DNA from: Candidatus Omnitrophota bacterium
GTDB taxonomy: Bacteria; Omnitrophota; Gorgyraeia; Zapsychrales; JANLHA01
Direction: 5' to 3'
Assembly (NCBI GenBank): GCA_963662715.1
Contig: OY759724.1
Location: forward strand, 1,178,662 to 1,242,661
DNA length: 64,000 nucleotides
The notes under the pieces: generated by a model
The model's database searches: none
What the model saw: the letters and a program-made list of their open reading frames with translations, nothing else
Told to the model about the DNA's origin: nothing
Shown here: positions 1 through 27,000 of the stretch, in pieces
Numbering within the stretch: position 1 is the stretch's first letter
How the letters are laid out: the number at the start of each line of letters is the position of its first letter
Position numbers and translations under genes: made by a program

Positions 1-3000
1 TATTCTCCCTTAAGGATTCGAACAACCTCATATTAATTTCCCGGTCTTCGAAGAATTTAAAACTGTGCAGCATATAAATGATGTAGATATCCGGGACCAT
101 GGCGGCGGCAAATTCTCTCTTTTCGATAAATTGTGTGTCCCTGGAGCTTATTAATAACGCCCCCAGCCCAGCGGAGAATCCGAACCTGAAGAAATAACGT
201 CTGGACATCTCTGCCTTCCGCGGCATATCGAGAATGGCAGAGAAGGCGCTTCTCTGCTCCGTTGTTCGAGTTTCTTTCTCTTCTTTCACCGGACTGGATG
301 AAGATGACGGACGGGCCTGTTCCGGCCAGATCGGCTGGTCGTTATAATCCCGCACCAACCGGATCGTTGACTGCGCCAGCCGGTAATAAATAGAGTCCGC
401 GGCAAAGACACTGCCCAGTTTAGGCATTTCGGACCCGGTGTAGGCAGAATATTTTTTATTCATCGGCTTAAGCTTTGTCTTCACCGCAGCCTGATAAAGC
501 CGGCTGTCTGCCGACGATCCCTGTAAAATGCTTTCCACATCAATCAGAATCACGACAGCGTTTATAAGATTATGGATATTCTGCATAGCCGCATCGCGGG
601 CCGGATTAACGATATACCAAATATGCAGCAGGAGGCCGATGGCGCCATCCCTGATTTCTCCCTCTCCCCGGCCTAAGATGACGCGCAACAAGAACGGTAA
701 AGCAGCGAACAGATTCTTTCTCAATTCTTCAGAATGCCGAATGTTCTCGATTCTTCTGCCTTGCTGCCAATCTGACAAGCCGGCAAGGTCGGCGAAGTAT
801 TGGCGCATGGTCCCGACTTTTTCTTGCCAGGCAGCGCCTTCTATCTGTTCCAGGCGGTCGGCTACACCCAGTAATTCTGCGCGGGCAGCCTCTGATTGCT
901 TTTCGACTTGATCCTTCAATGCCCGAGCCGCAATAAGTTCGGAAGAGTCCTCCGGCTGACCTTCCCGATCTTGCTCCGGCATTTGAGCCGGCTCAACTGT
1001 CGGAACAACCTCTGTTGTTTCAGGAGAAAGGGCCTGTTCACTCACAAACAATTCTGGAATCTTTAAGGCCACCGTATGATATACGGCTTTGACATTGTTT
1101 TCTGTGCGGTGTTGCATTTGCAGGTGTTCGGCCGGATAGCCGGCGGCATTCAACCCGATCATCATCAACTCGGCTGTCATATCATCTGAATTAAAGTAAA
1201 AAGCTTCTTTTAAAGCCGCGCGGGCTTCTTTACGCAGCCGGGAAATTGTTTCTTTAACTTTCGGTACGGCTCTCTTGCTTTCGTGGTAACGCGCTAAAGT
1301 TCGCTTTTCTTCTGCTTCAATCAGCTCTAATGCTTGAATAACCGAATCAAAACTCTCGTTAAACGCACGATCCAAAGCATCGAGCCATTCCACAAGGACT
1401 TTTAGCGTCCGGCTGCGAACGAATAATTTTCTGAGCAATGCTGTGTTCGCAAATACTTTAATCTTTCTGTAAGTCTTTAAGGTCTTCACACAATGTTTGT
1501 GAATAGAAAACATCGGTTTCTGAACAGTCCGGTTACCAGACCGGTAACGTTCGATTTCAACGTTCATCATCAAGGATTCGGTGGAAATTCGATCTCCGCG
1601 GAGCCTGGCCTGCAGAATAACGGAATGACTGAGAATCAGAATGGAGTCCTCTTCCGCTAATCTATCTCTCAATAAGGCCGCGAAAGACTCCGGAGACCAG
1701 GTTTCGAAGGTATGAACATGTACGATAACACAATCAACATGACCGGCCGTATCGTCTGCGGTGAATTCATCTGCCTGATCATAGGATATGACTTCTGCTT
1801 GTCCCCACAGCATTTTCTGTAGCTGCCAAACCGCTGCCCGGGAATATCCGATCGTTGCGATAACAGGTTTCCCGGCCGTCTCTTTATCAAGCAGATGCCG
1901 CATATAAACATTAGCAAATTCTTCGGTAAAATCTGGCCCGCTGAAGTACCGGTAGCCGGCTGCGGCCGACCGCTTCGCCGTCACGTCTCCAACAGCGAAT
2001 TCCCGGACAATGATGCCGGTCAAATTAACGGCAGGGTTATGAAGAACGGCTTTTTCGATATAAAGGGCATATTCTTCCCGGGCATAATATGCGCCAAAGG
2101 TTGCTTCCGGAGACTCTATGAATATAACCTGCGGCGGGCCGCGGATGACGCTTTCATGTTTAGCCCCGGCTAAGAAATCCAGCGCTTCCGCCATATGCCA
2201 CCTGGCAAATTTCAAATCATCGCCTTCAGCGGAGCGGGTCAGGAGCGCCACCTTGTATTGACGGACCATTTCTTCTTTTTGCTCCGCGGTGTAATCATCG
2301 CTCTTTCGCACAGGGGAGGAAGTCATTTCTACAAACATCCCGTCCTGAACTTTGTAAAGAATTCTCTGCTTCTGCGGCAGGGACGTCCACAGGCGGCCAA
2401 GCATTGTGAGCTCTTGACGCCCATAGGCCAAAACAAATCCTTGCTCCGTCATCATCATGGCCCGTAACCCGGCCCCCTGCACCAAAATAATCTGCGTGGG
2501 GAATCCTCGTCTTCGGCTGAAATGGACAAGGATGTTTTCAATCTCTTCAACCTGTTCCCGCATGCCTTGTTCGTATCCAATGATCAGAACAGGCTTGGCG
2601 TCACCCGCCTGCGTCAACATCTGCATGATGTCTGTAAGACGCTTTCTTTGAACATCATAATAATTGTACGGCCTTCTTCCGGCCCAGTTCTTCCGGTCAG
2701 AGTCCGCATCTTCCGAAGGAATGACCTCTTCCTGAATGATAAACACCCAGGGATTCTGCTGCCCGTCTCCGCGCACAGCATTGTAATCAACACCGTTGAT
2801 CGTAAACGATCCCGTTGACACCGGCCGGCCCAGATTAACGGCCCCGATTCCAATCTGACGGTCTCTGAGCCATGTCCCGTGGATAATATCTTTTCTGGTC
2901 GGGAATATGATCATATCAGCCCCGGCTTTGATAACACGCAGATATTTACCCTCAACCTGCTCGATCGTGCCGGGCACAGCCGCGCGCACAAACAGTTCAG

Positions 3001-3040
3001 CGTCGGAAATCAGCCCCCGAACGTTATCTTCCTCGCTGAC
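1..3040 (-). other. Further SSP-delimited modules of unknown function; the giant ORF runs on past coordinate 1
   Basis: Stop-free translation, codon-checked at 1076 to 1141 and continuing to position 1. Junction motifs at about 2310 (MTSSPV) and about 289 (SSSSSPV). Confidence 0.5.
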
Positions 3041-6000
3041 CGGAGAAGAGCTGCCGCCGTTTCCTTCCGTTTCCTTTTTGACGATATGCTGATTCACAAA
3101 TTCGGCAAACTTCAAGGACGGCCCGACCATTAACAAGTCGCCGGCCAAATCGATATCGCTTTCCGATAAAGCAATCGCAAACCGTTTCGCCCAGATATCT
3201 TCCCCGGTATCAAGTTCATGGAACGCTATCCGGGCGAATTCAGGCCGCAAGAATTCCTTTAAGTCTTCAAGCTCGGACAACAATTCCCAGCCTTCTTTGA
3301 CGGATTTTCTGTTTAACCTTGGCAAATGACGTTTTTCTAATATTTTCCGCCTGATGTGGACAATGTTCTTGACGGACCGGACACCCCTGCCGGCTTTTGT
3401 CGTCACAAAGATATCCTTGGGCGTCAACGTCTCCGGCGGAATTTCCTGAGGAGCGACTTTTCTTCTCTTTTTGGTCTTCTTAACCGGGAGGTCTAATCCC
3501 TTATCTTTCAGGGCCGTCCTGACAGCAAACTCAATGGCGAATTTCAAGACCTGATACGGCATGGTCGGGCGGTTTCCGTGACGGACGTTCGTGTATTTGC
3601 TCATAACAGGCAGGTATTCATTTGTGACAGGAGCCCATCTCAAGAACCGGTCAATAGCGTATCCCCATGGCGTAACAACGATCTTGCCCATGGCTGTGGC
3701 GGCATGCATCGTATAGGTGTCCGGCGTCACGACGACATCGGCAGAATTGATAAGCTTGTTCAACCCTTCCAGATCATGCTGATATGTTTCCATGATCACA
3801 AGCCGGCTATCCGGGCCCTGCACTCTTCTGTAGGATCCGATCTTTCTGTTTATCTCTGACCAGGCCTCTCCGGCGATGTCATGTTTTCGGGCTGTTTCAC
3901 CGCTGTCAACAAGCACGGCCAACCGTCCCCCGTAACCGAGGATAATTTCCGAAACGATCTTGTTCATCAACCCGTAATGGTAGTCTTTTCGTTCAGTAGA
4001 GCTGAAATAATTAAATAAGACAACCACCCGTTCCGGGTAACTCAGCTTCAGGCCGGAAGTCATTGTGTAACGCACGGGCTGATCCTGTCCGACCAAACCT
4101 GCAACTTCGGCATAATGCCTTTCCTGGGAATACACGTTAAGGATATGCGCATGTTCGTCCTTAACCTTGAACAGTTGCGTCCCGTCAAAGTAAATGATAT
4201 GTTTTCCTAAAAGAAGGCTTTCCGCATTCTCCACGACTTCCACGTCCCGGCGAAGGGTGTACATGACAGACCGCTGTTGACTTCTCTGTATAGCCCGGAG
4301 GACTTCGTGGCTGGATCTTTTGTCAATGAGGAATTGGGCTAAAACCAGATCATACTGCTGCTCTTTGAGATACTTTGTCAACTTGCGGTGATGATAGGAA
4401 TAAACAACTTTTTCCTGATCCGTGATATCAAAAGTGAAAAGATCGATCTCGTCAAAACCAAACACACGGCCGGCCCATTTCGTTTCCCGGCCTTTCCAGA
4501 TGGTCTTCTTGTTCGGGTGAGTCACCACCGTTACTTCTTCAATGTTCGGATGAACCGCCAGGATGTTCATAACGCCGCTTTCAATAAGCTCAACACCATA
4601 ATCCCGTTTGGTCGGGCTTAAAATAAGCACGCGTTTTACGGACGGCATAATATCTTTCAGCGGCTGTTCAATCAGCGGCAGCTGTGACAGCTCCACAGGC
4701 GAAGACGCAGAGAAACTCCGTGCTTCTTCCGTTCCCCGGCCATTTTGTGCCGGGCTGAAAACCGATATTGGGCGATATATTACTTCCTGCTGAGAAGGCT
4801 TGTTGAGGCTGCCGGTAGGCGGGCCGCGGTTGATCACAGAGTATTTTAAGGATTCCTGAACATATTGATGCTCATGCCCTGCGCTAAACATCACGTACAG
4901 ATGTTTGATCAAAGCCCATGCTTGGACGGCTGTATAAGCTACGGCCTTTCCGGCTTTCATAAATGAAAGCCCTGTTTGCAGTGTTACGGCCAAGCCGGAA
5001 GCTCCGCCCTGCGGCAATCCCGAATCCGGTTGTTCCTGACCTTTTCTCAACGGCCAGCTTTGGGTCTTCCCGGCAGCTCCCAACCACAGGCCCGGCATGA
5101 ATACCGGAGCATACGGACCGATACCGACCGGGGAACTGACAGGTTTTTGTAGGGCCGGAGCAGCCTCGACCGGGATGTTCACCGCTTCATGACGAATATC
5201 TTTTGCGCTATCCGTCTTATCCGTCTCCTGCCGTAACACCGGCGAAGATCCGTTATTCGAAGAACCATTTTCAGCAGAACTATTAAAGGTCTCATCCTGC
5301 GCCAAACGAGCGGCGGCCTGCCATTCGGCGTCCATCCAAAAATATTGCGCTTGACGGATATCTATCCCGAAACGGCGGATGAGTTCCGCCTTTGATGCCA
5401 ATGTCAACCAATTAAGATTTAACGGCCCGCCAATTTCTTTCTTAACCAATGACTCCAAGACCAAGGTATAAACATCTTCAGCTTTCATGGGATAGCGGTT
5501 CTCTGTCAGCAGATCCCGGGCCTTGAACTCCAGGATAACAGGGGCAAATTTCTCTTCATCCGGTCTGGCTTGCTCCTCGGTAGACATGAAGGAGTTCATC
5601 TCTTTCAAAGAAAGCGTCGGGCGATAGTCATCATCCGAAACAAATTGTCCGGGAACACGGTTCTGCTGCATAGCCCAGAATTCTGCCGTCCTGCGCTGTC
5701 CGGTGACTGAGTTCTCCCATGGATGGCCGGCCTTGGTTCCGTCACCAGCCAACCACGTGCGGACCAGTCCGGCAAGGGTGCCGTGATAAAGGACCAAATC
5801 TTTTTCCTCACTCACAATGGGGGAAGAACTGCTTTGGGCCGAATTAGCAAGGGTCAACTCAACACCTTCAGCGTTATCTTCTATAGTTTTAGCGGATTCA
5901 AGCGGGCTGGAAGACATAAAATGTTTATTATTCAAGAATGCGCGGATTCCATTCACCTGTTTCTTCTGACCTTCATAGAAGAGGATCAGATCCCTTAAAT

Positions 6001-9000: not shown

Positions 9001-12000
9001 GTCTGATCAGAAACGCCACCTTGGCTCTCTCCTGTTCCGTGAAGATGCCTAACTGCTCGAGAAGTTTATCAACAATGCGGGCGCTGTTAAGCGGATGTGA
9101 CACTTTCTTTCTGATATTTTCATCAAAAGGCGCTTTAAGTTTTTGGACTTTCAATCCCGGCAGATAACGTTCAATGTCATGCCCCATAGCTGCTATCTGC
9201 AAACTGAGATCAGCTTGCGGCTTGATTTTCCTCGCCCATTCTAAGACTTCATCGAAATGACGGAAATCGGTCTGCGCTGTATACTCGTCTTCCGGATCGA
9301 TTTCCCGGTATATCCGCAGGATGAGTTCGCGGATATAACCAAACCGTTTTTCAGATTCAGAAGCGCTTGAGATCCGGTCCCGCTTTATCGCCTTTTGGAT
9401 TTCTGTTACGATCCCGCGGACTTTTTCCGGCAAGAGAACCGGTCTCGTGCTGACGAGTTGTATTTGCCGCTCAGCCTCAAGCATAGCATCCCGGTCTTCC
9501 GTTTCTTTTTCCTGCACCGGCGATGATGAATCTCGTTCCGTGGCATCTAAGATAACCTGCGCTACTGAAAGCAGGTTGGATTGTGCCGTTTTATCTTCTA
9601 TCGCGTTTTCCTTGAAGAACTGAACAACGTGCGGACTGGTGAGTTTGACCTTTTCCGTTAAATGATAACTTCGGAACGAATAGTAAGTAAGATAATCTTG
9701 GATTTCCTGACGGATATCATCATCACTGGCTGTCTGCTGGCGTATCTGGGCAACCATGTTCCGGGCTAATTGTATTTCGTCCTGAATCGGGGAAGAAGGA
9801 TCACGTGGGCTTTGCTTCCTGTCCCTTTCCTGCCATTCATAGAAGGTAACATGATTGATGCCCCAGTTGTTCAGGTAGCGCAACACACGCTGCCGCGGGG
9901 CATGCGTCCGGACCTGCAGGAGGTCTATCACTTCTTCATACAGTTTCACGTCTCCGCCCTTCACCGCCTCTACCACCAAGTCCCGGTTCTCTTCAAATAT
10001 CTTCCGCTCCTGCTCATTCACGATAACGCTGTCCCTCGCCGGCATCAGTTCTTCCGTCGGCTTCAGATGCCGTTCCACAGCGTTGATCACAGGCTTAAGC
10101 TCCCCTTCCGACACCTCGCTCACTTCCGCCACCGTCAGGGCTGACAGCTGCGCCAATCGCGGAACCGTCACGTTAATCCCTTCCTTCTTCAGCCGGATAT
10201 ACGCCGCTATGATACTCTGGGCTTTCGCCGACAATCCTATCGCGTCCCCGTAATACGCCAGGTCCTTCGCCGTCCTGATCGCCTTCTCTGCCACCAGCTC
10301 CTGCAGCACGTCCGCCTTCCTGATCCTTCTTTCCACCGGGCTCGAGCTCAGGTCCATCCGGGAAACCGGAAGTTCTTCACTCGAGAGTTCGACCATCAGG
10401 TCCCAGAAGTCCGGCATGATCCCTTCATAATCCGGATGGTCTGTCTGCAGCGTCTCATACGCCTCTTCCCCGATCTCCCGGAAATCCTTCATATCCTCCG
10501 CATCCAAACGGTTCACGTCAAACCATCTCTGACCTATGTACCCCCGGCTCTTCACGTCATAGCCCAGGATCCCCGCCAAGGTAATCTTCGCCTCTCGCGC
10601 CTTCTTCTCCCCGCGCGGGTCCGCGTTCCACATCCGGCTCAATAACTCTCCGCTCTCCAGCACGCTCTTCGCGTCCTTCGGCGTCAACAATGTCAGATAC
10701 AACCCTTCATTCCCTTCAAAATATTCATGCAGTTTCCTCGCATACTCCCCTTCCTTCGTCTGCGCCTTCCTCTCCGCTTCCGTGTACGAATAGTGCAGGT
10801 GCACATACCCCAGCTCCTGATTCGCCTGCTGGTTCGCAAACATCTGGTTCGCCACATACAGCGGCGACGGATACGCATGCCGCGGCGTCCCAAACAGCTC
10901 GATGTTGATCGGCGCCCGCAGATACTTCACATCCGCCAGCTTCGGCTCCGGCTTGTAATACACGCTTCGTCTGAACATCGTCTCGATCGGCGTTGTCCGC
11001 ACCTTATCCCACAGCTCCTCATCCGTGATCCCGCCCTCCGGTACATTCAACGCCTTGCGCCAGTACAACGCATTTGTTGGCTCATCATACAGGTAATCCA
11101 CAACACTCCGACCTTCCGGCAGCACCAGCTGATGCGTCGGAATCCAGATATACCGACTCGCACTGCTCCGCTCATCAAACGTGAACCGCACCGATGACTG
11201 CAGCTGCAGCCCCAGCTCTTCCCTGCGCTCTTCTCCGAAACCTCTTTCTTTCAACCCGGCATCCGTATAGGTCTTCAGGCCCGGGAACGCGAACGTCCAG
11301 CCCTTGTACCACCAATCCAGCGGCTTGACATCCATCCCCAGGATATGCGGCATGATAAAATGCGTGAACTGGTCACCCTTCTTTTTGGCGATGATATACG
11401 CCCCGAACTGGATCGATTTGGCAAATCCTTTCACCTTGCGGCTGAACACTTCTTCGATCTCATTGAGCCGGTGCGGCCCGTTCCACGGCCGCGGACTAGT
11501 CTCCCTCTCTTCAAGCGGCGAAGAGCCCGATTCTTCACTGCCTCTTTCGATCTGGCCCTGGCTCTCTGCGGACGTCTGACCTTCTTCTTTCTCTAACAGC
11601 CGCCGTGCTTCTTCACTAATCGTAACGGTATCCGTTAATTTTTCTTCCGAACCGGCCTTGGTTTTCTTCCTGGACGATTTCTGATCCTGCTGCGGCCGGC
11701 GGTTATTCTCAGACTTCACAATTGGATGTATCGGCTCAACTTTACGCTCGACCTTTTTCACCGGGCTGGATGTCGCTGAATAATCCTTGATTTGTTCACT
11801 TCCGTAAGATTGATACTCTTCAAAACTAAGCGGTGAAGAGGACATCACTGTCACAGCCCCAACGTTTGATGAAATCTCTGCTGTCCGGCTTTGTGTTTGC
11901 TTCCAGGCCAAATATTCTTCCGGTGTCAGAGGTGAAGATGAGACCATCGTCACCGCGCCCACCGGAGAAGAGACCTTTTCGGCAGCCTGGGCCTGTTTCC

Positions 12001-15000
12001 ATGCCGTATACTCTTCCTGAGTCAGCGGGGTAGAGGACATCATCGTTGACGCGCCCACCGGAGAGGACACTCTTTCAGCGGACTGGACCTGCTTCCATGC
12101 CGTGTATTCTTCCTGAGTCAGCGGGGTAGAGGACATCATCGTTGACGCGCCCACCGGAGAAGAGACCTCTTCGGCAGCCTGGGCCTGTTTCCATGCCGTA
12201 TACTCTTCCTGGGTCAGCGGGGTAGAGGACATCATCGTTGACGCGCCCACCGGCAGCTGTCTCCTAACTTTTCTGTTAACGTCTGTTGTCCCGATCATTC
12301 TCACGACCGAAATATTTCGTGATGACTCATTTGCCCGATATTTCATATTCTCGATTCTATTCTTTAAGAACTCTTCTGTAACAACATAATACCCAAACAA
12401 CCGTTGGGCCATGGCAACAAACCATCGCCAGAGCCTGAGCAATGATTCGAGCAATGAACCTGGCCGGAGAATATTTTCAACAGGGATGTATATTGTCAGA
12501 GAGTTGTCCTCCTCGTCTTCCACCGGAACAAATCTCAATGTCACTTCTTCTTTCGGCACATAAGATGAAAGCATAAACGGAACGATCATCATCGAAGACG
12601 TCATGTTGGATCGTACGATAAGTTCCCGAGACATATCAACCGGGCTGGAAGATATCTCTTTACGGGCATCCTGAATATAAGCAAACCTCACCCGGAAAAC
12701 CTTCAAGGCCTTTACGATAAATTTTTTATCCATCCGGCGTCTGGCAAATTCTTCCTCTATCTTTTCAAGGGTTTGTTCTATTTTTCTTATGACATAATCC
12801 ACCTGCTCGCCAAGAATTTCGGCAACGGCCTCTTGACTGTCAAACTCCACACCCGCCAGCACTTCTTCTATAAGCCATTGCTCCAGGAAGGCCAAGTATT
12901 CCCGGGCATGATTTTGCATGCTGGCTTTCTTCGTGTCTAAAATCGTCATTTCATAGAACGGCTTAAGCGGATTCTCCTCTTTGGTAAATACCTGACCAGC
13001 CCCAACGCCAACAGTGGCATTGACAATATGCCATAATAATCTGACAATCAAAGTGTTCTCTATCTCCGTGCCCTTAATCTCCTTATAGACACGGATAATA
13101 TCTTCCGCGGTGATTTGTTCTCCCCAGGCAACAGGCAAGACTTCACTTAAACTGTCCACTGTCCTTAATTGATCCATTAAAATTTCTGTGTCCCATTTTG
13201 CTTCAATCGGACTGGAAACGTTTTCTTCATAAAGTTCACCGAAGCTTCCCTTGACGGAACGTCCGGCGGCAGCCGCATCCCCTGTCTCACCCTTTAATAA
13301 CACGGCTGCCACCGTATAAGTTCCTTGTCCCTTCACCCTTTCGTTGTTTGTTCCTGCCTCGGCCACCGGCGAGGACACCTCTCCGGCCTCTGAAAGCAGG
13401 TCTGTTGTTTTTGTTCTATTTCCTGCGATTCTCTCGCTCAACTCGCTTCTTTCTTCCCGGACTCCGGAGGAACGTCCGGCGGCAACCGCATCCCCTGTCT
13501 CACCCTTTAATAACACGGCTGCCACCGTATAAGTTCCTTGTCCCTTCACCCTTTCGTTGTTTGTTCCTGCCCCGGCCACCGGCGAAGACACCTCTCCGGC
13601 CTCTGAAAGCAGGTCTGTTGTTTTTGTTCTATTTCCTGCGATTCTCTCGCTTAACTCGCTTCTTTCTTCCCGGACTCCGGAGGAACGTCCGGCGGCAACC
13701 GCATCCCCTGTCTCACCCTTTAATAACACGGCTGCCACCGTATAAGTTCCTTGTCCCTTCACCCTTTCGTTGTTTGTTCCTGCCCCGGCCACCGGCGAGG
13801 ACACCTCTCCGGCCCCTGAAGACAGGGTTATTGTTTGTTGACTGACCTCTATAGCCTGATCGATCACCGCAGCTTGATCCGGCGTGATCTTCAAGATAAG
13901 GTCTAACTTAGTTCCCTGATCAATATCAATACGTTCAATGCTGTGTTCTCTTTCATCCCCCTTCTGCCAATAATACCCCCGGCCTTCTCCGGTGCTGTGC
14001 GTCTCAATGGAAATATTTTCTGCATTTTCGACCGTCAGCGTTAATCCATGTCCGAAATTACCGCCTTTATCCAAACGATTCCCCTCGACCACAGCTTCTT
14101 CAATACGGACATGTTCACCGTTCTGGTTAATAAATCCCTTCCCTTGATCCAAGACGATCACATGAATCGCGTCTTCGCCCTCTTCTGTCTCTGTTCTTTC
14201 AAGCAGGATCAAACCAAAACCGCTGCCATGCTGAGCGATATTCTGATTTATATATCTAAATGTCTGCTCCGCAGATCTGTAATGAGACAGGACAAACGAA
14301 CTAAGCCCGAAAAGTTTTAATACAGACCAATCCAGAACATTGGAATATCCCGAGAAACTCAAAACTCCTTCTTTTTTCATTGTTTCCAGAATCACTCTGA
14401 AGCGGTCCTTAACGGCTTGTTCCTCCCCGGTCAATTCCTTCTCGTACCAAGCATCCAAAGCTCTGATCCCCGGCAACAACTTCCACAACTCATTGACCGC
14501 TTCTCTCTGAATAGGACTTGAACTCGGGCCTTCAGGAAGATCCATTCTCGAATGCGCTCTTAATGCCGTCAGCAGCGCCTCGGCCTGAGACATGCTTGCC
14601 TTCCCGTTTCGAATCGCATTGATGCCGGCCATGCCGATCTCTTCATTTTCTAGGAGTCTGAGGAACACCTCCTGAACCTCCGGAGTTCCTTGGCGGGTCG
14701 CTCTGGACAACACATACTTCACTAACCTGCGGACGGCTTCTGCGGCTTGCTCATACCCTGTCTCTCTCTCATACCCTATCAGGAAGTCGCCCACATAATA
14801 CTGATAACTCCGGTATCTCTGGAACACCACCACGTTCACCAGCGCCTTCAGCGTCAGCTCGAGAGCTCCCTTCTGCTTGCTGAAATCGTTCTCCTTAAGG
14901 AACCCGATCACCTCTTTGATCAATCCTTCCGCCTCTTCCGACCGCTCTATCTGCTCGCGCCCCTGCGCTCCTTTTAACCGGTACACTCTTGATACATATT

Positions 15001-18000
15001 CTTCTGCCTGCTCAAACAACTCAACAACCGGCTCCGGAGCTGCTTCAACCCGGACCACTCTCATATCAACCTTGCCCGATTTGTACACCCGTATATCGAC
15101 GATCATCTCCGATTTGTCCTTCATCTCGATCCGCACTCTCTTCGCCTTCGGGGCATTATGGTAAATCGCCCACACCCGGCCGGCCTTCATCGCGTCAAAA
15201 TCATCCTGAGGATATCTGTTCCTCAGCCAGTCCCTCATATCTTCCGTGCGGGTTAACGTCATCTCATAACCCTGCATCCAGACAGCATCAATCTCTGCCA
15301 TACGAAGGTCCTTGCCCAACCGTGCTTTATAAGCCGCCTGCAGTTGATCAAACTTCTCTATGACAGCCGTGACAATCTCGTCGCGCACCGGGCCAAACGC
15401 CATCACTCTGCTTCGGATATTCTTGCGGATTTGTCCCTTCGTCGGCCCGAACAGGCTCAGCTGATCTTCATCCTCTTCACCCTTCGCTATCGGGCTGGAG
15501 GAACCTGAAGAAGCTTTCTGCTGCTTAATATTCTCTTTTAAGAATTCTCTTATAATTCGTCGTGTTTGCTCATAAAAGACGACATTGGCGTGCGGATTCT
15601 CTCCTTCTTTAGGTAATATGATATATTCCTCTGGATTACCCAATCCCCGTTTAAAGCCCTCAATAAATTCTTTTAAGGCGCGACCGGGTTCCTTATTTTC
15701 CAAGTCCGGAGAATGTATATCCTCTTCGACCATAATAGTCATCTTAGGACCTAAATAATCTCTCAAGGCATCAACTGTCTTCTCGCTGTATAAGTCTCGC
15801 ATCAATTCCCCGTAAGGATTGTTATCCTTCATTAAGGCATACCGGCCGCCGGAAAAGATATTACTGAAGAATGGATAGAACGGTAATAAATCAAAGCCCC
15901 TCTGTCGGCCGGCCAGTTCGGATCCAGCCAACGGCGTAGCAATCTCGAGGAAAGAGACGCCTTTGAACAAAGAGTGTCCTCTGTCTTTGTCGGTCTTAGC
16001 CGCCAACCTGAAGATAGTCCCGCCATTGGAATGCGTGACAACTCCCCCAAGGCGGGCCGCAGGATTTCTTAACTGAAATTCCGTCCATTTTTCCGATAAT
16101 TTTTGCATATTTTCTTTTACCGGCAGGAAGTAATCATAAAGGAAGAAGGCAATATTATATTTTCTTCTGAGCTCTTTGAAAGAAAGGGCAAAGGTATTAA
16201 ACGCGCCCCGGCCATTGCCGTGGATAAAGAGGATCACCGGCCTGTTATCCACGGTTTCAAGGGTGTGGATATCGGACAGCCCTTCCAAAATACGCATAAT
16301 TTCCTGTGATCTCGCATCATTCTTAGGCAATGTTTCTTTTAAAATCCGGGCAATATGGCCAATGACAATATCTTTACGTTCTGAAATTTCTATGTTTATT
16401 TGATTTAAGGCATCCTCGAAACCGGAACCCGATGTCGCCTTGTTGCTATCTTTAATCGCTTTTTCTAATGCGTTCATAAGCGGTGCAATAATTCCTTCGA
16501 ACCCGATTTTAATTTGGCCATTTTCTGATAACGCTTCGCCTTCTTCCTTTAATAAACCTTCATTCTTTACAAGTGTTGCGAATGCTTTCTCTGGATTCCG
16601 GGCTAATGCCATCATCGTTGCCAACGCAATGATGAATTCCCGGCGAGTTATAGTTACCGGGGAGGAACTGGAAATATCTTTTCCGACCCCGGTCTCCACC
16701 TCTTCCTTCATCATATGGACAGTTCTTTGATTCTCTCCTCTGCGCTTAGAGCTTGATGCCGGTTTCCTGGCGATGACATATTCATGCTTATCGCTACGAA
16801 ACGCCACTTCTTCATCCTTAAAACCCTTCTGTTTCATGACAGTAACGAGCTTAGCGCCCATCAACCCGGGCGCTTGTCCTTTCAAGAAATCAGTAGTTGC
16901 TTTAACTATAATTATTCCATCAGCCTGCAGCACGAAATAAGATTGCTCAATAATTTTCTCTAAAACATCAACAAAGAAGAATGGATTAATCAACTCACCC
17001 TCTCCAGCGGTGGCTAAAGCCTCACCGTATCTACTGATTCGTGCGTCCCTAAGGACATATAACAGACTGTCATTATGGACAACGACTCCCAGGGTTCCTC
17101 CGTTAAATTCAGCTGACAAATCTGTCGCGTCGCCATAGACTTGCGTGAGCACTGCCTTCTCCTCTATGTCGACTTTCTTTTGTCGTGCAACATCCAACAT
17201 GAACATCCTCTTAAGACCACCGTCTATTAAGCCTTGGGAAGGATTACGATTTGACGATGCGGCAACATCGATGCCTATCCGGCCTCCTAAATGATATCTA
17301 TGCGCAAGTTTTTCATATATTGTGCGTTCCTCATTAACAACTATCTGAACCGGGGAACTGGCCGGGTCATCATCAATTTCAGGACGATCCATCCTTGAAT
17401 GCACTCTGAATGCCGTCAGCATCGCTTCCGCCTGTTCCAGCGTCGCTGCGCCGAACCGGATCGCATTGATGCCGGCCATGCCGATCTTTTCGTTTTCTAA
17501 GAGTCCGAAGAACACATCCTGGACCTCTGGAGTCATTCGGCGGGTTGCTCTGCTTAAGACATACTTCACTAACCTGCGGACGCTTTCTTCTGCCTGTTCA
17601 TATCCGGTCTCCCTGGCATATCCTATCAGGAAGTCGCCCACATAATACTGATACCGGCGGTACTGCTGGAACACCACCACGTTCACCAGCGCCTTTAACG
17701 CCAGCTCAAGAGCTCCCTTCTGCTTGCTGAAATCGTTCTCCCTAAGGAACCCGGTCACCTCTTTTATCAACTCTTCCGCTTCACTTGACCGTTCAACCTG
17801 TTGGCGGCCATACGCGCTCTCCATCCGGTATCCTTTCGATACAAACCGATCGGCCGGAGTGAACAGGTCCATCTCAGATTCCAGGGCCGCGTCCACCCGG
17901 ACCACTCTCATATCCACCCTGCCTGACTTGAACACCCGCACATCCACGACCATCCGGGACCGGTCTTCCGTGTCGATCCGCAATCTCTTCGCCTTCGGGG

Positions 18001-21000
18001 CATTATGGTAAATCGCCCACACCCGTACGGCCTTCATCGCGTCAAAATCATCCTGCGGATATCTGTTCTTCAGCCAGCCCCTCATATCCTCCGTGCGGTC
18101 TAACGTCATCTCATAACCCTGCATCCAGACAGTATCAATATCTGCCATACGAAGGTCTTTGCCCAGCCGTGCTTTATAAGCCGCCTGCAGTTGATCAAAC
18201 TTCTCTATGACAGCCGTGACAATCTCGTCACGCACCGGACCAAACGCCATCACTCTGCTTCGGATATCCTTGCGGATTTGTCCCTTCGTCGGCCCGAACA
18301 GGCTCAGCTGATCTTCATCTTCTTCGCCCTTCGCTATCGGTGAGGATGTCTGATCCTTAGACGCCTCCGCCCCCAGAGAGCGGACGGCCTCTTTCACATC
18401 CAACGTCATATCACTTCCGGCCAGATCGCGGATATCGGCTGCGCTTAATGTCTCACCCTGAATAATCCTTGACCGGTAGAGTGTCATCCAGCGGCGATGA
18501 ACGGTCTTATCATTAAATGTAAAACCGAACTTCAGGTAGAAAACCACGGCACCTGAATCTAATGCATAGTCATTATCAATCTGTGACCGCATCAGATGAA
18601 CCTGCTTCACGTCAAAATGACTGTGGATGCTCTTAATCAGGGCAGCAAACATGTCTTTGCTCTTTTGGCCTTCATGCCGGAATTCATCAAACAAGCGGTA
18701 GACAAGATGAGCGCCGTTTCTGTCCGTGATGACCGTGCCGTAGGCCAGGACCTGATCTTTTTCAACAACAGCAAGATAATAACCGCTGTCAATCCCCAAA
18801 CGAGCCAGGAAGACAACCCGCACCCCATCCATAATTGGGCCGGCATAAACCTCATATTCATTCACATCGTCTGCCTGTCCTCCGCCGATCCAGACATCTT
18901 TTGCTTCAAAGGCTTCCTGCAGCCAGGCGGCATATAAATGAGCTTCCTGCAATGTTGCTCTAAAAAGTCGTGTGGTTTCGGTCAGCTGTCTTACTTGCGG
19001 ATAAAGGAGGTGTCCCGCACGAACCGGGGAACTGGACGGCGTTCTGCCGGATTCGGAATCCGGAGTCTTCATCGGAATAATAATGTCAAACCGGGCTCCC
19101 AGGATCTTCCCTGTCTGGCCTTTAATGTTCCGTGCTGTAATCGTGCCGTCAAAACATTCCTCAATGATCTTACGGCTCAGGTATAAGCCTAACCCGTGGG
19201 CTTCGTCTTCTGCGAAACGCCGGCTGAACCATTCCTTGAAAATCAGGTTGATCAGGTCTTCTTCGCCGGCGAACGTGGCCCTTGCCTTGTTCCAGACATT
19301 CAGTTCAACGGCCTTGCTTCTGAGAATATCCGGCTGGAATCCCTGTCCGTTATCCCTGAAGCTGATTTTTAAATAACCGTCTTCATAGCCCATGTCCATT
19401 TTCAGCCGGACTTTTAAGAAACCGATCCCGGCATGACTGTAAGCATTGCTGATCAAATTCTTCAGCACATAGAAGAGCCCGTCCTTATAAACCGGCATAA
19501 ACACCTGCGGCGTCCCGGGATGAATGACCACCTCGATACCTCCGGTCCGCATCCAGGTCCGCCCATGGAAATCATCCAATGCCAATGTCTCCAAAAGAAT
19601 ACCGTTACGGACGATATCGATTCTCCTGGCGAATTCTTCAATGCTTCGAGCAAAATTCTTCTTAACCAACGCCCATGTGTCCTGATGGTCCGCTATCTCT
19701 GCGAGGTTGATGCCCTGTTGCTTTCTGTAATCCTCAATTAAGTACTCCAACCCTTCACACATTTTCTGGATACTTTTAGCTTTTATCTCTGCCTGCGGTT
19801 TTTTCAGCAAGGCCGAGAAAGCCGCAAAAATAGCGTCAATTCTCCTGTACAGGTCCAGATAGATCCTGACCAGGGCGAGGTTGTCCTCTTGTCCTTCATA
19901 ATACATATCCAGAACCTGCAGGTTGCCTAATACGGCAAACAGCAATGAACGTAAGTCATGCGTCAAGATGCCGAAGGACAGTAAAGCTCTTTGCTGAATA
20001 TTAATACCCAATGACTGTCCGGTACGGACGGCCCGTTCTATCTGATCTTTCTTAAACAGCAATTTATAATGATCCGGCTGATCTCTTCTCAGGACCCCTC
20101 TTCTGACCAGAAGATCGAGGGCCATGTTCAGAGCTCGGGTGCTCTTGATATCCAAGAGGCCCGGGGCTCCCTGAGTTGCGGCCAAATAGATAACCGGCGT
20201 CAGCTGACCATCCTGGGCAAAGGCGTAAAGTCCGCGTGTTTCCAGAATAGTTCTTAACACTTCTTCCTCGGCATGATCTTTCCAGGCTTCCACCGGAGAA
20301 CTGGCCTTTTGAACCGTTAAGACTTCGGCGTTTAATTTCGTTGAAATGTTCATGGAAGCAGAAAATCCTAGGCTTTCCAGAGCAGGAATCGCCTCTCTTG
20401 AATTCTGATAATTGTGAATCACGACGGCATCCCGATTTAAGACCGGGTTAAGGCTCTTCATGTGTTCAAGATATTCCGCCTGCTTAAGATGTTTAAGGCC
20501 CATGAAGCTCACGATGAAATCAATCTGTTCCGGAGCGAAGTAATAAGGCAAGTTTTCTGCGACATCCAGAATAAACGTAATCGACGGGTGGAGGTTCTGC
20601 CACTTGACGGCCTGGCATTCATCCCCAAAGCCGAACAATTGAATCCTCCCGAGATCTCCTTCTTCAAGCGTTCCCTGCCTGACCTGTTCTTCCAAATCTT
20701 TGGCTATTGTGTTTACGGCCACGCCTTCCCCTGTTCCCCAGCAAACATAAGTGACCTTTCTGTCCGGCACGGCGCTTCTCTTCACCCTGCGGACCCTCTC
20801 AACGATCATCCGTACGATATCGATACCAAATTCTCTGTTGATATCCACCAGCCTTGTGTCCGTAAATATCGACCTTCTGACTTCGGTAAAGCCGTCAAGC
20901 AGACCGGTCTGGCTGTTCAAATAAACACGGCCGTTATAGAAATAATCAATGTCTTTAATCTTATCAACAGGAAGCGTGGTCAGCAGTCTCGGTCCGGCCG

Positions 21001-24000
21001 GGAAGAAAGTTTCTTTGATCGACATCTCTTCTGATACGGATCTGATAACACTGCCCGGCGCCATTTTGCGTATCGGGGAGGAACTGGTCTTGGGGCCGGA
21101 TGACTCTGTCGTTGTTGGGCGCTCTTTGTTTTGCGATGTTCCGGCCCGTCCGCCGATATACTGGCCGATAATCGCTAAAGATTTCTCTATTTGCCCCCGG
21201 CCCCGTTCGACAACCTCATAAGCTCTTTGTCCTAACGCATCCGCCAGATCATCATTTTCAAATACCCGGATCAGTTCACGCCCTAACTCCGAGGTTTTCT
21301 TCAATTGAATGATCGCATCGTGAGAGATAAAATCTCCCATCATATCTTCAAAGTTTTCTGTATATGGACCGACAATGACAGGTTTGGCAAAATTGGCAGG
21401 TTCCAGAGGATTGTGTCCGCCTAACGTATACCAGAAACTTCCGGCAACAACGACGACACTGGCAATGGAATAGAGGGATTTTAATTCACCATACGTATCC
21501 AGCATAATCACCTGAGGAGGTCCGCGAGGATCTATGGAACTCAAAGCAGATTTGCGTATCGCCGGAATACCCTGCAACTCCAAATACCGCATAAATCCGT
21601 CAACATCAGCAAGATTGCGCGGAGCAAATATCAGTTTCACATTTTCCAATCCCGGACGGATAATCAATTCTTTATAGGCCTTGACCAATTCAACTTCTTC
21701 ACGTTCATGAACACTTCCGTAAACAAGAATCTTATCTGTTCGGTTTAATCCCAAATGTTTTAATAACTCTGTTCTTTCATCTTCCGATAAAGTAATCAGG
21801 GATGTGTCATATTTAATATTTCCAATAATGGAAATCCTGTCGTCTCCGACCCCTCTCTGCTGCAGGAATTCTCTTGCAAGTTCAGAAACGGCACCGAAAT
21901 GATCCGTCAATTCCACGAGTTTACGGCCGTAGAACCGATATTTTACCCGAAGGACTTCACCAAGAGACTGGTCGTCCGACAAGAAAGAGTTGATCACGAC
22001 CGTAGCCGCCCCATATTTTTCTTTGGCAATTCTAACGAATTTAGGCCCTAACCCTATAAACGATTCCTGGACGACGACATGAACCGGCCTGATAACTCTG
22101 AACAGCCGATTAACAGCGGACTTCATATCAAAGACATACGGAAGAACAACGATATCCTTATCAGCTAAACTCGCCATGTCTTTGACATTTTGGGTGCTGT
22201 TTGTCAGCAGGACAATACGATAATCCGGATAAGTCTGCTGCAGAGCTTCTATCAGGGATATGGAATTAATAACTTCCCCGACACCGCAGGCGGAGACCAC
22301 GATGGATTTCCTGTCGTCTTTGAATGTGGCCTTAATGTCTCGCGGGATATACCCAAAGCCTGCCGGAATATCGCTCCAGTGACGATGCTGCTTGATAAGA
22401 TGTCGCACAAAATTCATGCTGTACAACGGGGCAAAAAGCAGGTCTTTAACGAAGAAGGTCAGCCTTGAGTCTCTTTCAAGCCATTTGGAACCCGTAACCG
22501 ATACAATAACAGCCGCACATGCACTTCTGCCGGATTTCTTAATCATCTTGTAGGAATGATACATTCCCAAACGCAGGAGGGCATAGAAAGATTTTCTTTC
22601 TTGTCCGTTATCCTTCCCCTGCTTGACCGGGCTGGAAACCTTGTTTTCCGGAGACTTAACGCGATAGTTGTACATTTCCGGAACATCATCCTGATCAATC
22701 CTTTCAAAAGAGTATCCTTCAGCCAGCATGGAGCCCAACAAGACACCTTGTTCACCCCGGTCTTCCAGTAATTCGTTTTCAACGTAAAAGGTCACCTCTC
22801 CGTCTATGGAGAAATTGAGATAGATATTACCGAACGCTCTGTTAACATTGCCGTACGCATCCCACATCGGCAATGTCTCGATATCAAATTTCCGGCGAAT
22901 AGTGTCCGCCTGCCCTTTGGTCCACTCGACAGCCCATTCCCAGACATTCTCATCCGGGATGCCGGTCTCTTCCTGGACAGCCTTCCAAATCCTGGACTGC
23001 AAGTCGTTAATAAGCGTGACGGTCTCCATTCCGTCATAAACGTAGCGGATCACCAGATCTTTGTTCTGTAAGGTCCGGATGACATTGACGAACTCTTCCT
23101 GATACTTGGCCGTGACACGGGCTATCCTTTGCCGGCCGGCTTCTCTGTCAATATCCGCTTCGGACGAATACACCGCTTTGAAGGCATCATGATGCCAAAC
23201 ATGGAAACTCAGGTTGACCTGCAAATCAAACGGCAGGGTCGCCAGCCGTTCGGCCGCCTGCTGGGCCCGGCGGTCGTTCACCCTCCAGCCGTGTGTCACC
23301 AGCCAGACATCAAAGCCCCGTTTATGAATGGCATCCACGACATCGGCGATATCCTTGCCCGAAGCCTCATCATAATAGTTCATCGGTTCAAGGTCCTGGC
23401 ACACGGAAACACCTCGGACCAGACTGGCTCTCACCCAGTTCAGGAATTCCTCTTGCTGAGGCCCGGACAGAAGATCTTGCATCGCCTCTCTGATCACCGA
23501 ATGCATGGCGATGTATGGATTCTGGTCACTTAATAAACGCGTCTGCCGGTATGTGCTGGCCTGTTCGATAAAGTCGGCAAACAGCTGCTGATAACGCTCA
23601 TCAGTCTCCTCTAATAAGTAATCTATAAGCCATTCCTGGGTTTCCTGAGTCCAGCGGGCTTTCCTGAATTCCGCAATAAATTCTTCCCGGACATTGACAA
23701 TAGAATCCAACACTTTTTCGATCTGTTCAAACGGCATCACCCGTCCGTTCTTGGAGCTGCCGAAGAGACAGATCAGACAGCCGCGGTTACATCCCGACAT
23801 AATCTGAATGACCGGAATACGCTTGCGGTAGAAACGGTCCAGGCGCCCGCCGAACATGATGTAGCCCTGCGGCGGCGTAAAGTAAACCTGGCGGATGGTC
23901 CTCTCCCAGACGTCTCCATTAACCGGGCTGGAGGACATGTTTTCGTTCTCTGACTGTTTCAAAGACAGCAGGACAAATATGCCGTCATCCGATAAATAGA

Positions 24001-27000
24001 AATCACTGTTGTCCGCTTCTTGCGTCTTCAGAGATTCTATTAATTCCCACACGGCAATATGAATAAGATAGAAGTGATCCATGGAGATATCTGCCGGGAA
24101 CATAACTTTTGAGGTTTCTGCCCAATATCGCTCATAGACTTCTGGGAAGCGTTCCTTCAAATGACCCCTTGTGGCAAAGACCGGAACAAGGCCTTCAACG
24201 CCAATTTGATCGGCTGTATAATCAAGAATCATTTCTTCGGTATCCCCATTCTCCTGGACAACCAGCATGGATAAATAATAATGTCCGGCCCTGCGGCTGA
24301 AAAGCACCCGGGCATCGATACCGTCTTCTGCCAGGGATTCTCCCGCCAAGATGGACATGCTTTCACATCCTTTAGGATATACCGGGAAGTCCTCATGATA
24401 ATAAGCGCGTTTGAAGTAAGCATGGCGCTGGATAAAATCTTGCATGCTTTCAATAGACACCGGTTGAATGGTTGCGGGCAGGACTCTCCCGCTGCTGACC
24501 GGGGAACTTGCGGCCGCAGAAAGCATAAATGCCTCTACGGTCTCTTGAAGGACGGTCTTGCTGTAGAAAGCCGTCAGGCTAAGACGGACCGTATTGCCTT
24601 CACGGATAAACAGTTTTTCAGGATCTTCGGCAAAATGAACGATTCTTATCTGCAGGTCACCGAGGCTCAATCCCTTTCTCTCGACAACATTGCTGACAAA
24701 ACCGGTCAGCAGCTTAAGTTCTTCCTGCGACACATAAGGTTTCCGGCTGGCAAGTTTATACGGATATTGACGTGACGGATTATAATCAACGACATGATGC
24801 GTAAACCCGGCTTTGTCCCGGATATGAGCCAGCAGGGCATAAGCGCTGTCGTCCTGAGCCAACATGCGGATTCCTTTCCGGTCAATAACAGTTCTTAAAA
24901 CGGCTTCCGTATCGTCATTTTCAATATCTGAAACGATAATGGTGTTGACCGGCAAGTCCATCATATCCAAGAGCACGCTGTAAATACCCCGCCCGGCAAC
25001 GTCGTTCAAATAAACCCAGGCATACAAAGCATTCATGCCGTTTTCGGAATAAATGCTGAATCTTGCCTCACCCGGGGCAACGCCGTAAACGCCTTCTCCG
25101 ACATAAACCCTTAATTCATAATTATCCGATTCGGCGCGCACCGGATAATCAAAATCATCTTTTCCGACGACATATTCTTCTTCGTTCAGGACATCGGCCA
25201 TTTCATCAATGTCAATAACCCTCGGCTTACCCCGGACCTGATACTGTGTTGTCCACGCGCTGTTTTCAAGGCTTAAGACCGCAATATCCCTGTCTTTCCG
25301 CTCTGCCGGCATATTGTTTTTCCGGATGACCGGGCTGGAAGAGCCGGAAGACTCTCTTAAAATCTGTTCGGATAACATAACAGCCGGAGCTTCGACGCGG
25401 ATAATCAGAGACTCGATTTCCTGTGCGGCGACCAATCCCTCCTTACTGCGCTGCTTGACGGAGAAGACCTCGTATTCTGTCACGGCCGGCAAGACCGTCT
25501 GACGTTCTTCCATGACTTTTCTTACAATATTGGCTGCTGTCGTAACGTTCTTAACGGCCAGGTAAGCCGTATCCCTTATTGATGCCTCCTCATGAATATA
25601 ATCCTGAACCGTCTGAATATATCTTAAAGCGCCTTTGGCGGCTGTCGTCTGCCGGTGAACTGTATCCAGGAGGCTCCTGTGATAAGCCGTTGTGCCGGGC
25701 TGAATATTGAGCAGGTTCCAGGCCCGGGCAAGCGTCCCTTCCGATGTGTTATAAATCTCTGTGCCCTCGGCAAAAATCGTAGAGAGCGCCAGCATAATGC
25801 CGCCTTTATCTTCGACAGAGACGTCCCTGCCCCCGACATTAATAACCTGGTACTGAATACGGCCTATGCGGGTTTCCATAGAACCCGTCATCAGGGCCGG
25901 ATCCAGGGAGGAGGCATCGGCCACGATCACCACATCAATATCGTTCGGCTCTGTTGACCAGAGGCTGCTGCCAAAAGCATAGACCAGACGGATATAAGGA
26001 ACCGCGGCCGCAAACGTTTCATGGACCATAATCTCTGCTGCTAACCAGGCCGAATCAATCGTCGCTCCGGCAGGAGTATGGATCATCACTTCGGTATTCA
26101 CAACCGGGCTGCTGGCGGGTTCTCCACCCTCTTCCTGGCTGAGCAGAGCTTTTCTTTTTTCCGCTTCTTCAAGAATATTTTCCAGCAACTCGTGCAGACG
26201 ACCGTATCCGAAATTGCGGGACGCCATATGATAGGCGGTCTTAACCATCGGCAGGGCTCTAACACGTCTGATCCGCTCCTCCTGGCTTTCCGCGTCTATG
26301 GCATTAACCAGCTGGATGACTTTCTGAACCGTCTGCCGGAACGCTAAATAATATTCCAGAGAATACTTCACATACTGCTCTATTTTTTCTTGAGACACTC
26401 CGTTAAATGACTGAAGGAAAAGCTTCTGCTTTTCAATCTCCTTCTCCGGGAAAAGAGGAAGTTCAAGGAAATGCTGCAAATCGACGGCTTTAACCTGATT
26501 AGGATTAATATTATATTCCATAAGAAATTCATCACTGAGCTGAGGATACTCAATAGCCTGGCCTTTCATCTGTTTCTTGATAAACACAGTATAAATTTGA
26601 TACGGATACACGATAACCGGACGCTGGGCCGCAATTCCTTCGATCAGACCATTTCCAAAAGCTTCAAAGGTGGATGAATAACTGACAAAATCCAAATTGG
26701 CATAAACGTCTTCCAGAGAATAGACCTTATTGCCTTTTTTATCTTCTTTACGGCCGGCGTTAACCTGGACTCCCCTGCCTTCCAGCCAGGTCACGACCGC
26801 GACATCCTCCCCACCCCCATGACGCAACTCTAATCTGTCAATAAACCTCGCAAGTTTATCCTCATACGCATAATCCTTGCCGTTGAGTTGTCCTGTGATC
26901 AAAAGCTTGTAGCGGGCTGCCCGCGCCGGATCCATTTCCTTGATAAGCTTAAGAAGAAGAACCGGCAGTTCGAGGCTCTTCCTTTCAATAATTCTGATAA

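Follow-up and report, generated by a model that had tools for sequence, protein, structure and literature searches.

A nearly identical in-frame repeat of two modules within a giant Omnitrophota open reading frame and its possible homogenization by gene conversion

Introduction

The window analysed here is a stretch of 64,000 nucleotides (nt) from a Candidatus Omnitrophota bacterium (assembly GCA_963662715.1, contig OY759724.1, positions 1,178,662 to 1,242,661), and the whole of it is occupied by one open reading frame (ORF) on the minus strand. Within this giant ORF lies a direct repeat of about 1.7 kb, in which two adjacent modules, here called X and Y, are present twice in nearly identical form. 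How the two copies came to be so alike is the subject of this work. Giant proteins of Omnitrophota have been described as Archaeovorins (bioRxiv 10.1101/2023.11.21.568195), and a survey of the giant genes found that their repeats are mostly ancient, with the nucleotide similarity dissolved; its scan was for tandem repeats only (bioRxiv 10.64898/2026.06.07.730766).

A six-frame scan showed that the frame is free of stop codons from nt 2 to 64000 (21,333 codons) and exceeds the window at both ends. It is tiled by at least 12 distinct Pfam families, including SLT transglycosylase, RelA/SpoT, Methyltransf_28, UPF0489, NUDIX, HATPase_c and a Kdo-transferase-like glycosyltransferase with GT1, together with weaker matches to phosphoribosyltransferase, radical SAM and DUF4202. 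At 46808-47845, corresponding to amino acids (aa) 5386-5731, lies a strongly matching 1,3-beta-glucan synthase (FKS) domain of the eukaryotic type (E = 4.5e-68). This glucan-synthase region has ten related genome loci, at 53-63% identity, all of which belong to metagenome-assembled genomes (MAGs) of the Omnitrophota type; eight are labelled Omnitrophota, Omnitrophica or Ca. Zapsychrus and two Planctomycetales, and most of them are open frame throughout the fetched locus. Judged by these nearest relatives and by its domain content, the giant ORF is a putative fragment of a multi-enzyme giant gene of the Omnitrophota type, and its domain repertoire and architecture would best match the published class termed 'multi-enzyme metabolic cluster' (bioRxiv 10.64898/2026.06.07.730766). 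A crude hydropathy scan of the ORF, which is incomplete at both ends, gave eight candidate transmembrane (TM) segments; six of them form the main cluster (aa 4382-6093), which the FKS domain adjoins, and this domain is kept in Omnitrophota giant ORFs at 53-63% identity. Cysteine accounts for about 0.1% of the residues, an extreme depletion shared with related giant ORFs (0.000-0.004).

Results

Extent and frame of the repeat

Comparison of the window with itself returned one outstanding direct repeat. Self-BLASTN aligned 9827-11524 (copy A) with 29561-31258 (copy B) over 1,698 nt at 98.59% identity without a gap (E = 0), and MAFFT agreed. Trimmed of the SSP[L/I] codons on one side and of a 27-nt transition zone on the opposite side, the cores (9854-11512 in copy A and 29588-31246 in copy B, both on the minus strand) differ at 15 of 1,659 nt, which is 99.10% identity. 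The direct repeat of 98-99% identity reported in the initial annotation is therefore real. The offset between the copies is 19,734 nt rather than the 19,733 that its intervals imply, as one coordinate in each pair was off by one; it equals 3 x 6,578 codons, so that both copies lie in frame within a single ORF, as had been proposed. In the protein, the repeat corresponds to aa 10915-11480 for copy B and to aa 17493-18058 for copy A.

The N-terminal edge had been placed at a junction marked by the tripeptide Ser-Ser-Pro (SSP), and it does coincide with the SSP motifs at residues 17493 and 10915, where module X begins. The fourth codon at this edge is CTT in one copy versus ATC in the other, with two bases differing, and unbroken identity sets in at codon 5. 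Module X comprises 393 aa from this SSP to the next one (copy A, 10346-11524, aa 17493-17885; copy B, 30080-31258, aa 10915-11307; minus strand). It is followed by the all-helical module Y (copy A, 9797-10345, aa 17886-18068; copy B, 29528-30079, aa 11308-11491; minus strand). Module Y has 184 aa, of which 165 belong to the 99% core and 173 to the tract with its transition zone. The block between the copies (11525-29560, minus strand) adds up with one copy to the 19,734 nt, or 6,578 codons, of the offset, amounting to about 30 SSP-delimited modules. It contains Radical_SAM-like, Kdo-transferase-like glycosyltransferase, methyltransferase and HATPase_c domains, as well as the V pair, the 71-aa repeats and a module termed W, which are described below.

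Substitutions between the two copies

The 15 core differences consist of nine synonymous changes and six replacements with no insertions or deletions, even though only about 23% of the sites are synonymous. Over 553 codons, dS is 0.024, dN is 0.005 and dN/dS is 0.19, a pattern that we read as selection-filtered evolution rather than sequencing or polishing noise. Because the synonymous sites are also nearly identical, the identity reflects recency and not protein constraint. The mismatches between the repeats comprise 16 transitions and eight transversions without adenine bias, and mismatches are clustered at short range, with four gaps of at most 7 nt (permutation P = 0.007). The identical runs shared by the copies reach 293 nt.

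The GC content at third codon positions (GC3) of X and Y, 0.71-0.735, is the highest of all modules, compared with 0.575 overall. Among the other modules, GC3 is 0.645 in the V pair and falls to 0.40-0.45 in some; the variation by module was also noted at aa 8746-9106 and 15548-16167.

When the six replacements were polarized with outgroup lineages, four or five proved to be derived in copy A and none in copy B; among the changes in copy A, a proline that is nearly invariant has been lost at X37 (P to S). This asymmetry toward copy A, which occupies the conserved syntenic context described next, is suggestive only in so small a sample, and any direction of the event read from it would be conditional.

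Synteny in related assemblies

A metagenome scan for X-Y gave one 5-kb contig, L001, which is the only ortholog fragment of the pair (56% aa identity) and a distant one; none of the collections searched yielded a close relative. L001 is colinear with aa 16732-18059, that is, with the upstream flank, linker Z, X and Y of copy A. A second assembly, L012 (P0002), runs from the tail of Y in copy A into the module after copy A at 56-63% identity; it also carries an X-type module immediately before U, the module that lies downstream of copy B in the window (39% identity, E = 2e-54). In the lineage of L001 and L012, this 31%-identical X-type module beside U, here X2, stands without Y or Z', the linker next to copy B. 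The order in L012 (positions 1-3274) is Y-tail, m1, an SLT-like module, X2 and U, all within 1,090 aa. There, homologs of the sequence around copy A and of that around copy B are separated by about 400 aa, compared with 6,578 aa and a reversed order in the window. These arrangements point to large-scale reordering of modules between lineages.

The assemblies also bear on the caution in the initial annotation that the repeat might be an assembly error. In one version, a strain variant of a single X-Y locus would have been placed at a second position; in another, the contig would be a chimera joined through a repeat that two genes or two genomes share. Assemblers tend to mishandle sequence of this kind, 1.7 kb long, 99% identical and with runs of identity as long as those above; a 1% difference with dN/dS below 1 could equally be strain-level variation, and a chimeric join through a coding repeat would preserve the frame. 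However, the path from the upstream flank of copy A through X-Y to its downstream flank is colinear with L001 and L012, and since these are independent assemblies a path swap at the repeat is excluded and both junctions of copy A are confirmed. The presence of an X-type module beside U is likewise seen independently in L012. Each copy in the window consists of complete modules between unique flanks and has SSP junctions and a diverged Y tail of its own, all 64 kb remain in one frame, no indels separate the copies, and the composition does not shift across their outer flanks. The caution is weakened by the separate flanks, by the selection-filtered differences and by the path shared with L001 and L012, without being removed entirely. 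We regard an artefact as improbable, and a purely artefactual second copy in particular would be unlikely.

Ends of the tract and flanking linkers

Past the tract, both copies of Y continue into diverged tails on the minus strand, at 9797-9853 in copy A (HVTFYEWQERDRKQSPRDPS) and at 29528-29587 in copy B (PDTFYELREADLDSENKADS). A hidden Markov model (HMM) of the Y family, which was built from other lineages only, without the window sequences, aligns to the first 14 residues of the copy A tail, up to model position 184 of 186, and to the first 11 of the copy B tail. In this segment TFYEWQERD is found versus TFYELREAD. At the DNA level, the identity past the tract end drops from 99% to about 81% across 27 nt and then to noise. 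Because the model aligns past the end in both copies, the tract ends within Y, with homologous sequence on both sides of the break.

The linkers flanking the two copies are also related. Linker Z (11525-11770, aa 17411-17492, minus strand) lies directly N-terminal of X in copy A and is also present in L001, and Z' (29294-29527, aa 11492-11569, minus strand) lies directly downstream of Y in copy B. They share about 45% aa identity with saturated dS; Z' is an ancient paralog of Z, and the saturation indicates that an old duplication in this neighbourhood predates the homogenization of X-Y. At the N-terminal edge, the tract stops at the point where the homology of the two contexts stops. From the SSP counts, the chance that a random breakpoint falls within four codons of a junction is about 3.5%.

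The initial annotation had offered very recent duplication or ongoing gene conversion as explanations. The low dS agrees with a recent event of either kind, and the tails and the Z/Z' pair make conversion the better fit. In a fresh segmental duplication, the 1.7-kb X-Y cassette would have been copied once, very recently, to a site with no earlier paralog, the breakpoints falling at the SSP junction on one side and close to where Y ends on the other. Such an event would account for the uniformly low divergence across 1.66 kb and for the lack of an older, diverged third copy of X or Y in the window. It would also suit the arrangement in L012, where the distant X2 before U, without Y or Z', makes the X-Y of the window look like a lineage-specific replacement; and module-sized duplication does occur in this gene, as the V pair and the 71-aa units show. 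Nevertheless, a naive recipient site is not expected to supply the diverged Y-family segment that both copies carry past the breakpoint, nor would it lie beside Z', an ancient paralog of the linker beside copy A. The polarizable replacements also fall in the syntenic copy A, although it is usually the new copy that shows relaxed constraint. Fresh duplication thus remains a serious competitor, which we consider less probable than conversion.

Other repeats in the giant ORF

The V pair (14531-15493 and 17378-18340) has 84.4% nt and about 80% aa identity, rather than the 85% at the amino-acid level given earlier for this pair. Over the full units (aa 15219-15547 and 16168-16493; window 14521-15499 and 17359-18346) the aa identity is 81%, dS is 0.44 and dN/dS is 0.28. 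The V pair is a second instance of module-sized duplication in this ORF, and the duplicate is very nearly one SSP-to-SSP unit, extended upstream by about 17 residues.

Two tandem arrays lie just N-terminal of copy A, at higher window coordinates. The one at 13256-13836 has three units of 213 nt (71 aa), the first two of which are identical in protein with a dS of 0.037. The other, at 11839-12253, has about four 32-aa units that read 'SSPVGASTMMSS[ST]PL..EEY..WKQ', and 96-nt tandem units were detected at 11898-12253. Some SSP motifs thus sit inside repeat units and not at module junctions. The V pair and the two tandem arrays are all either older or shorter than the X-Y repeat. Module W occurs three times at 30-45% identity (aa 6821-7076, 9098-9354 and 17109-17418); the third W and linker Z precede copy A, and the order W-Z-X-Y is the same in L001.

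Modules X and Y

Neither X nor Y has a family-level match in Pfam, PHROGs or NCBIfam or a sequence match in the PDB. For X, the only matches to these family libraries are at chance level (E = 0.04 or worse), and the sequence and profile searches of the PDB gave only a spurious match to a CHD1 chromodomain (E = 0.03). The AlphaFold model of X has a moderate pLDDT of 70, and its best Foldseek match in the PDB has E = 0.1. The model of Y is good (pLDDT 84) and all-helical; its best fold matches are helix-turn-helix regulators, none of them significant. In both models the pLDDT falls below 50 at termini, at both ends for X and at the C-terminal end for Y.

The invariant residues of the X family include H242, H244, P282 and D284, forming His-x-His and [S/T]-Pro-x-Asp. 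This combination suggested a JAB/MPN(+) metalloprotease, a classification that we rejected. The two motifs are about 37 residues apart in X, and both window copies, like L001, carry Gln in place of the upstream Glu. In JAB/MPN(+) proteins, HxH and SxxD are typically about ten residues apart. No member of the X family has a Pfam match, the PDB profile search returned nothing relevant to JAB, RadC appeared only at rank 40 (E = 1.8) in the Foldseek search of the PDB, and hhalign against E. coli YicR gave a probability of 0.08% (E = 0.64).

An HMM scan of the visible 21,333 residues found no further diverged copies of X or Y, so that the window holds two of each only. An exhaustive HMMER search gave ten remote relatives, on which the family alignments are based, and in these relatives X and Y occur separately and in other orders. 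The Y family is also found as a free-standing 179-aa gene (P0003) at L014 2403-2942, L015 1263-1802 and L016 340-879, and its neighbours on L014 and L015, the contigs with called neighbours, are mostly on the opposite strand. The giant protein thus includes at least one module that is a self-contained protein elsewhere. The description of these units as cassette-like modules is borne out by the separation and reordering of X and Y in other lineages, by the stand-alone Y and by a V pair that corresponds to one SSP-to-SSP unit. A word-indexed search of 5.8 billion proteins matched neither the X-Y unit nor the downstream junction of copy B (Y of copy B, Z', U). The X-Y unit was also without a match in tblastn searches of plasmids and phages, and no relatives of X were found in GTDB species genomes or viral contigs.

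A repeat that is dispersed, discrete in length and bounded on one side by a defined motif might suggest a mobile or specialized element, such as an insertion sequence, an intein, an intron or the template/variable pair of a diversity-generating retroelement (DGR). No transposase, intein or reverse transcriptase was matched at the family level in Pfam, PHROGs or NCBIfam (only chance-level matches in the latter two databases, E of 0.04 or worse), and no Pfam domain lies under either copy. No Rfam family was found in the window and no inverted repeats in the self-comparison, which argues against a mobile element, an intron or a ribozyme alike. Moreover, the copies are in-frame coding sequence under purifying selection, and their halves X and Y are independent of each other in other lineages. 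A DGR was rejected on its own account: the mismatches have no adenine bias, the whole window is one ORF without a separate gene, and no reverse-transcriptase domain was found in the four-fifths of the ORF scanned against Pfam (nt 4001-64000). An element of this kind is already largely refuted and would be a most improbable explanation.

The SSP junction motif

The tripeptide SSP occurs 57 times in the ORF, compared with about 2.7 expected; the residue after it is always V, I, L or M, and the residue before it is usually S, V, T or A. It is limited to residues 6813-21235 (298-43564), with none in the first 6,812 residues. The motif draws on all six serine codons, which indicates selection on the protein and rules out a site defined in the DNA, whether a cloning scar or a site of recombination. 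Within the SSP-bearing region each Pfam domain is contained in a single SSP-delimited segment. The SSP motifs at either end of the X model, like the C-terminal end of the Y model, lie where the prediction confidence is low. Among remote relatives, the motif is 7- to 17-fold enriched in P0001, P0002, P0005, P0006, P0009, L001 and L006, and it is absent from the Omnitrophota giants L002-L005; it is kept in relatives at 30% identity. At the junction of X and Y, L001 (4440-4500) reads TVSSAIE and the window reads LSSSPVE; the motif is therefore not retained at every homologous junction.

Discussion

We favour, with somewhat better than even confidence, the explanation that gene conversion between older paralogous X-Y cassettes made the two copies alike again. 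In this mechanism, two real paralogous cassettes would have existed at two sites of one giant, polyprotein-like gene, and non-reciprocal homologous recombination would recently have homogenized them. The conversion tract would extend from the start of the shared homology, at the SSP that opens X, to a point inside Y, past which each copy would retain its own older, diverged sequence; since then, both copies would have remained under purifying selection. Conversion is favoured because the tract ends inside Y and each copy keeps a diverged tail, because the flanking linkers Z and Z' are ancient paralogs, and because the N-terminal edge sits where the homology ends, as a homology-limited tract predicts. 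Two further observations fit, with less weight: the short-range clustering of mismatches is compatible with patchy repair or conversion, and the high GC3 of X and Y, which is also elevated in the V pair, is compatible with GC-biased conversion.

Several points weigh against this explanation. The homologous flank past the tract is short, 11-14 residues, and present on the C-terminal side only. The comparison involves two window sequences and one distant ortholog fragment, L001, too few for a GENECONV-type or tree-incongruence test. The X-Y of L001 has a high GC3 as well (0.72-0.83), so that GC3 may be a property of the modules and not a trace of the event. The position of X2 beside U in L001/L012 means that the copy B site may be a lineage-specific insertion, that is, a duplication, and the number of two copies is read from one assembled contig. 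Explanations outside those named here are given a small weight, comparable to that of an assembly artefact.

A broader possibility concerns the junction motif itself. SSP[V/I/L] might be a functional boundary in a sub-lineage of Omnitrophota giants, for example a processing site of a mega-polyprotein; cassettes would then be copied, converted or shuffled as units, X-Y would be one such cassette, and X might be a metal-dependent processing enzyme present in two doses. The motif is under selection as a protein sequence, lies in low-confidence linkers, brackets every recognizable enzyme domain and is kept in relatives at 30% identity, and for these reasons such a processing boundary is compatible with the data; taken as a whole, we nevertheless consider this proposal rather doubtful. 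If SSP were a processing site, then, speculatively, the two X-Y copies would double the dose of both products relative to the others. The cleavage points of Omnitrophota giant proteins are stated to be unknown in one of the two preprints on them (bioRxiv 10.64898/2026.06.07.730766; bioRxiv 10.1101/2023.11.21.568195), and the text of the two, as searched, describes no junction or cleavage motif. As a candidate processing or linker signal and a source of candidate cut points for proteins whose processing is an open question, SSP[VIL] may be a more interesting and novel lead than the repeat.

The repeat nevertheless has consequences for the gene that carries it. The copies are direct and in frame and share about 1.66 kb of homology, and recombination between them would therefore keep the reading frame. 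We infer that RecA-type recombination could remove or double a stretch of 6,578 codons with its roughly 30 modules while the frame stays intact. An in-frame substrate of 1.66 kb would thus provide a concrete mechanism by which giant genes can grow or shrink without loss of frame, and at least one Omnitrophota giant gene would still be undergoing remodelling at the module level. For curators of such genes, the X-Y repeat is at the same time an assembly hazard. The event itself is of a known kind, concerted evolution or duplication in a long modular gene, and a new instance of it in an Omnitrophota giant; most likely, we are dealing with ordinary biology, the homogenization of paralogs, in an unusual gene.

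The giant ORF resembles the known giant proteins of Omnitrophota in that it exceeds 64 kb, is tiled by many different Pfam domains and has its relatives in Omnitrophota MAGs; domain repeats inside the protein are also common in that class. The Archaeovorins were characterized by West-Roberts et al. by many TM segments and a SecA-DEAD-like domain (bioRxiv 10.1101/2023.11.21.568195). Unlike the giants so described, the visible part of this ORF has no SecA-DEAD, dockerin or C39/S8 peptidase domain, the absence of a SecA match applying to the visible 21,333 aa of an ORF that is incomplete at both ends. The X-Y repeat also differs from the repeats surveyed in these genes (bioRxiv 10.64898/2026.06.07.730766) in being dispersed and in its dS of 0.024, and the pair is thus contrary to the conclusion that such repeats are ancient. 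A comparison with viral and bacterial polyproteins can be drawn only as an analogy; no protease was identified. As in polyproteins, a short conserved peptide, located in poorly predicted linkers, connects modules of the size of whole proteins, and one module, Y, exists free-standing elsewhere; unlike in polyproteins, several related giants lack the motif, and so do the first 6,812 residues here.

Concerted evolution by gene conversion is known among the modules of assembly-line polyketide synthases and among the near-identical repeats of large bacterial surface proteins. The X-Y repeat is like these systems in that module-sized paralogs within one long ORF are near-identical at synonymous sites, the tract ends ignore domain boundaries, and the in-frame repeats are able to mediate gain or loss of modules. 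Nevertheless, there are clear differences. The modules here are unrelated to one another and of the size of whole enzymes, rather than iterated catalytic modules or adhesin repeats; and the copies are dispersed 19.7 kb apart instead of being adjacent, within a protein whose units are marked by an SSP[VIL] peptide.

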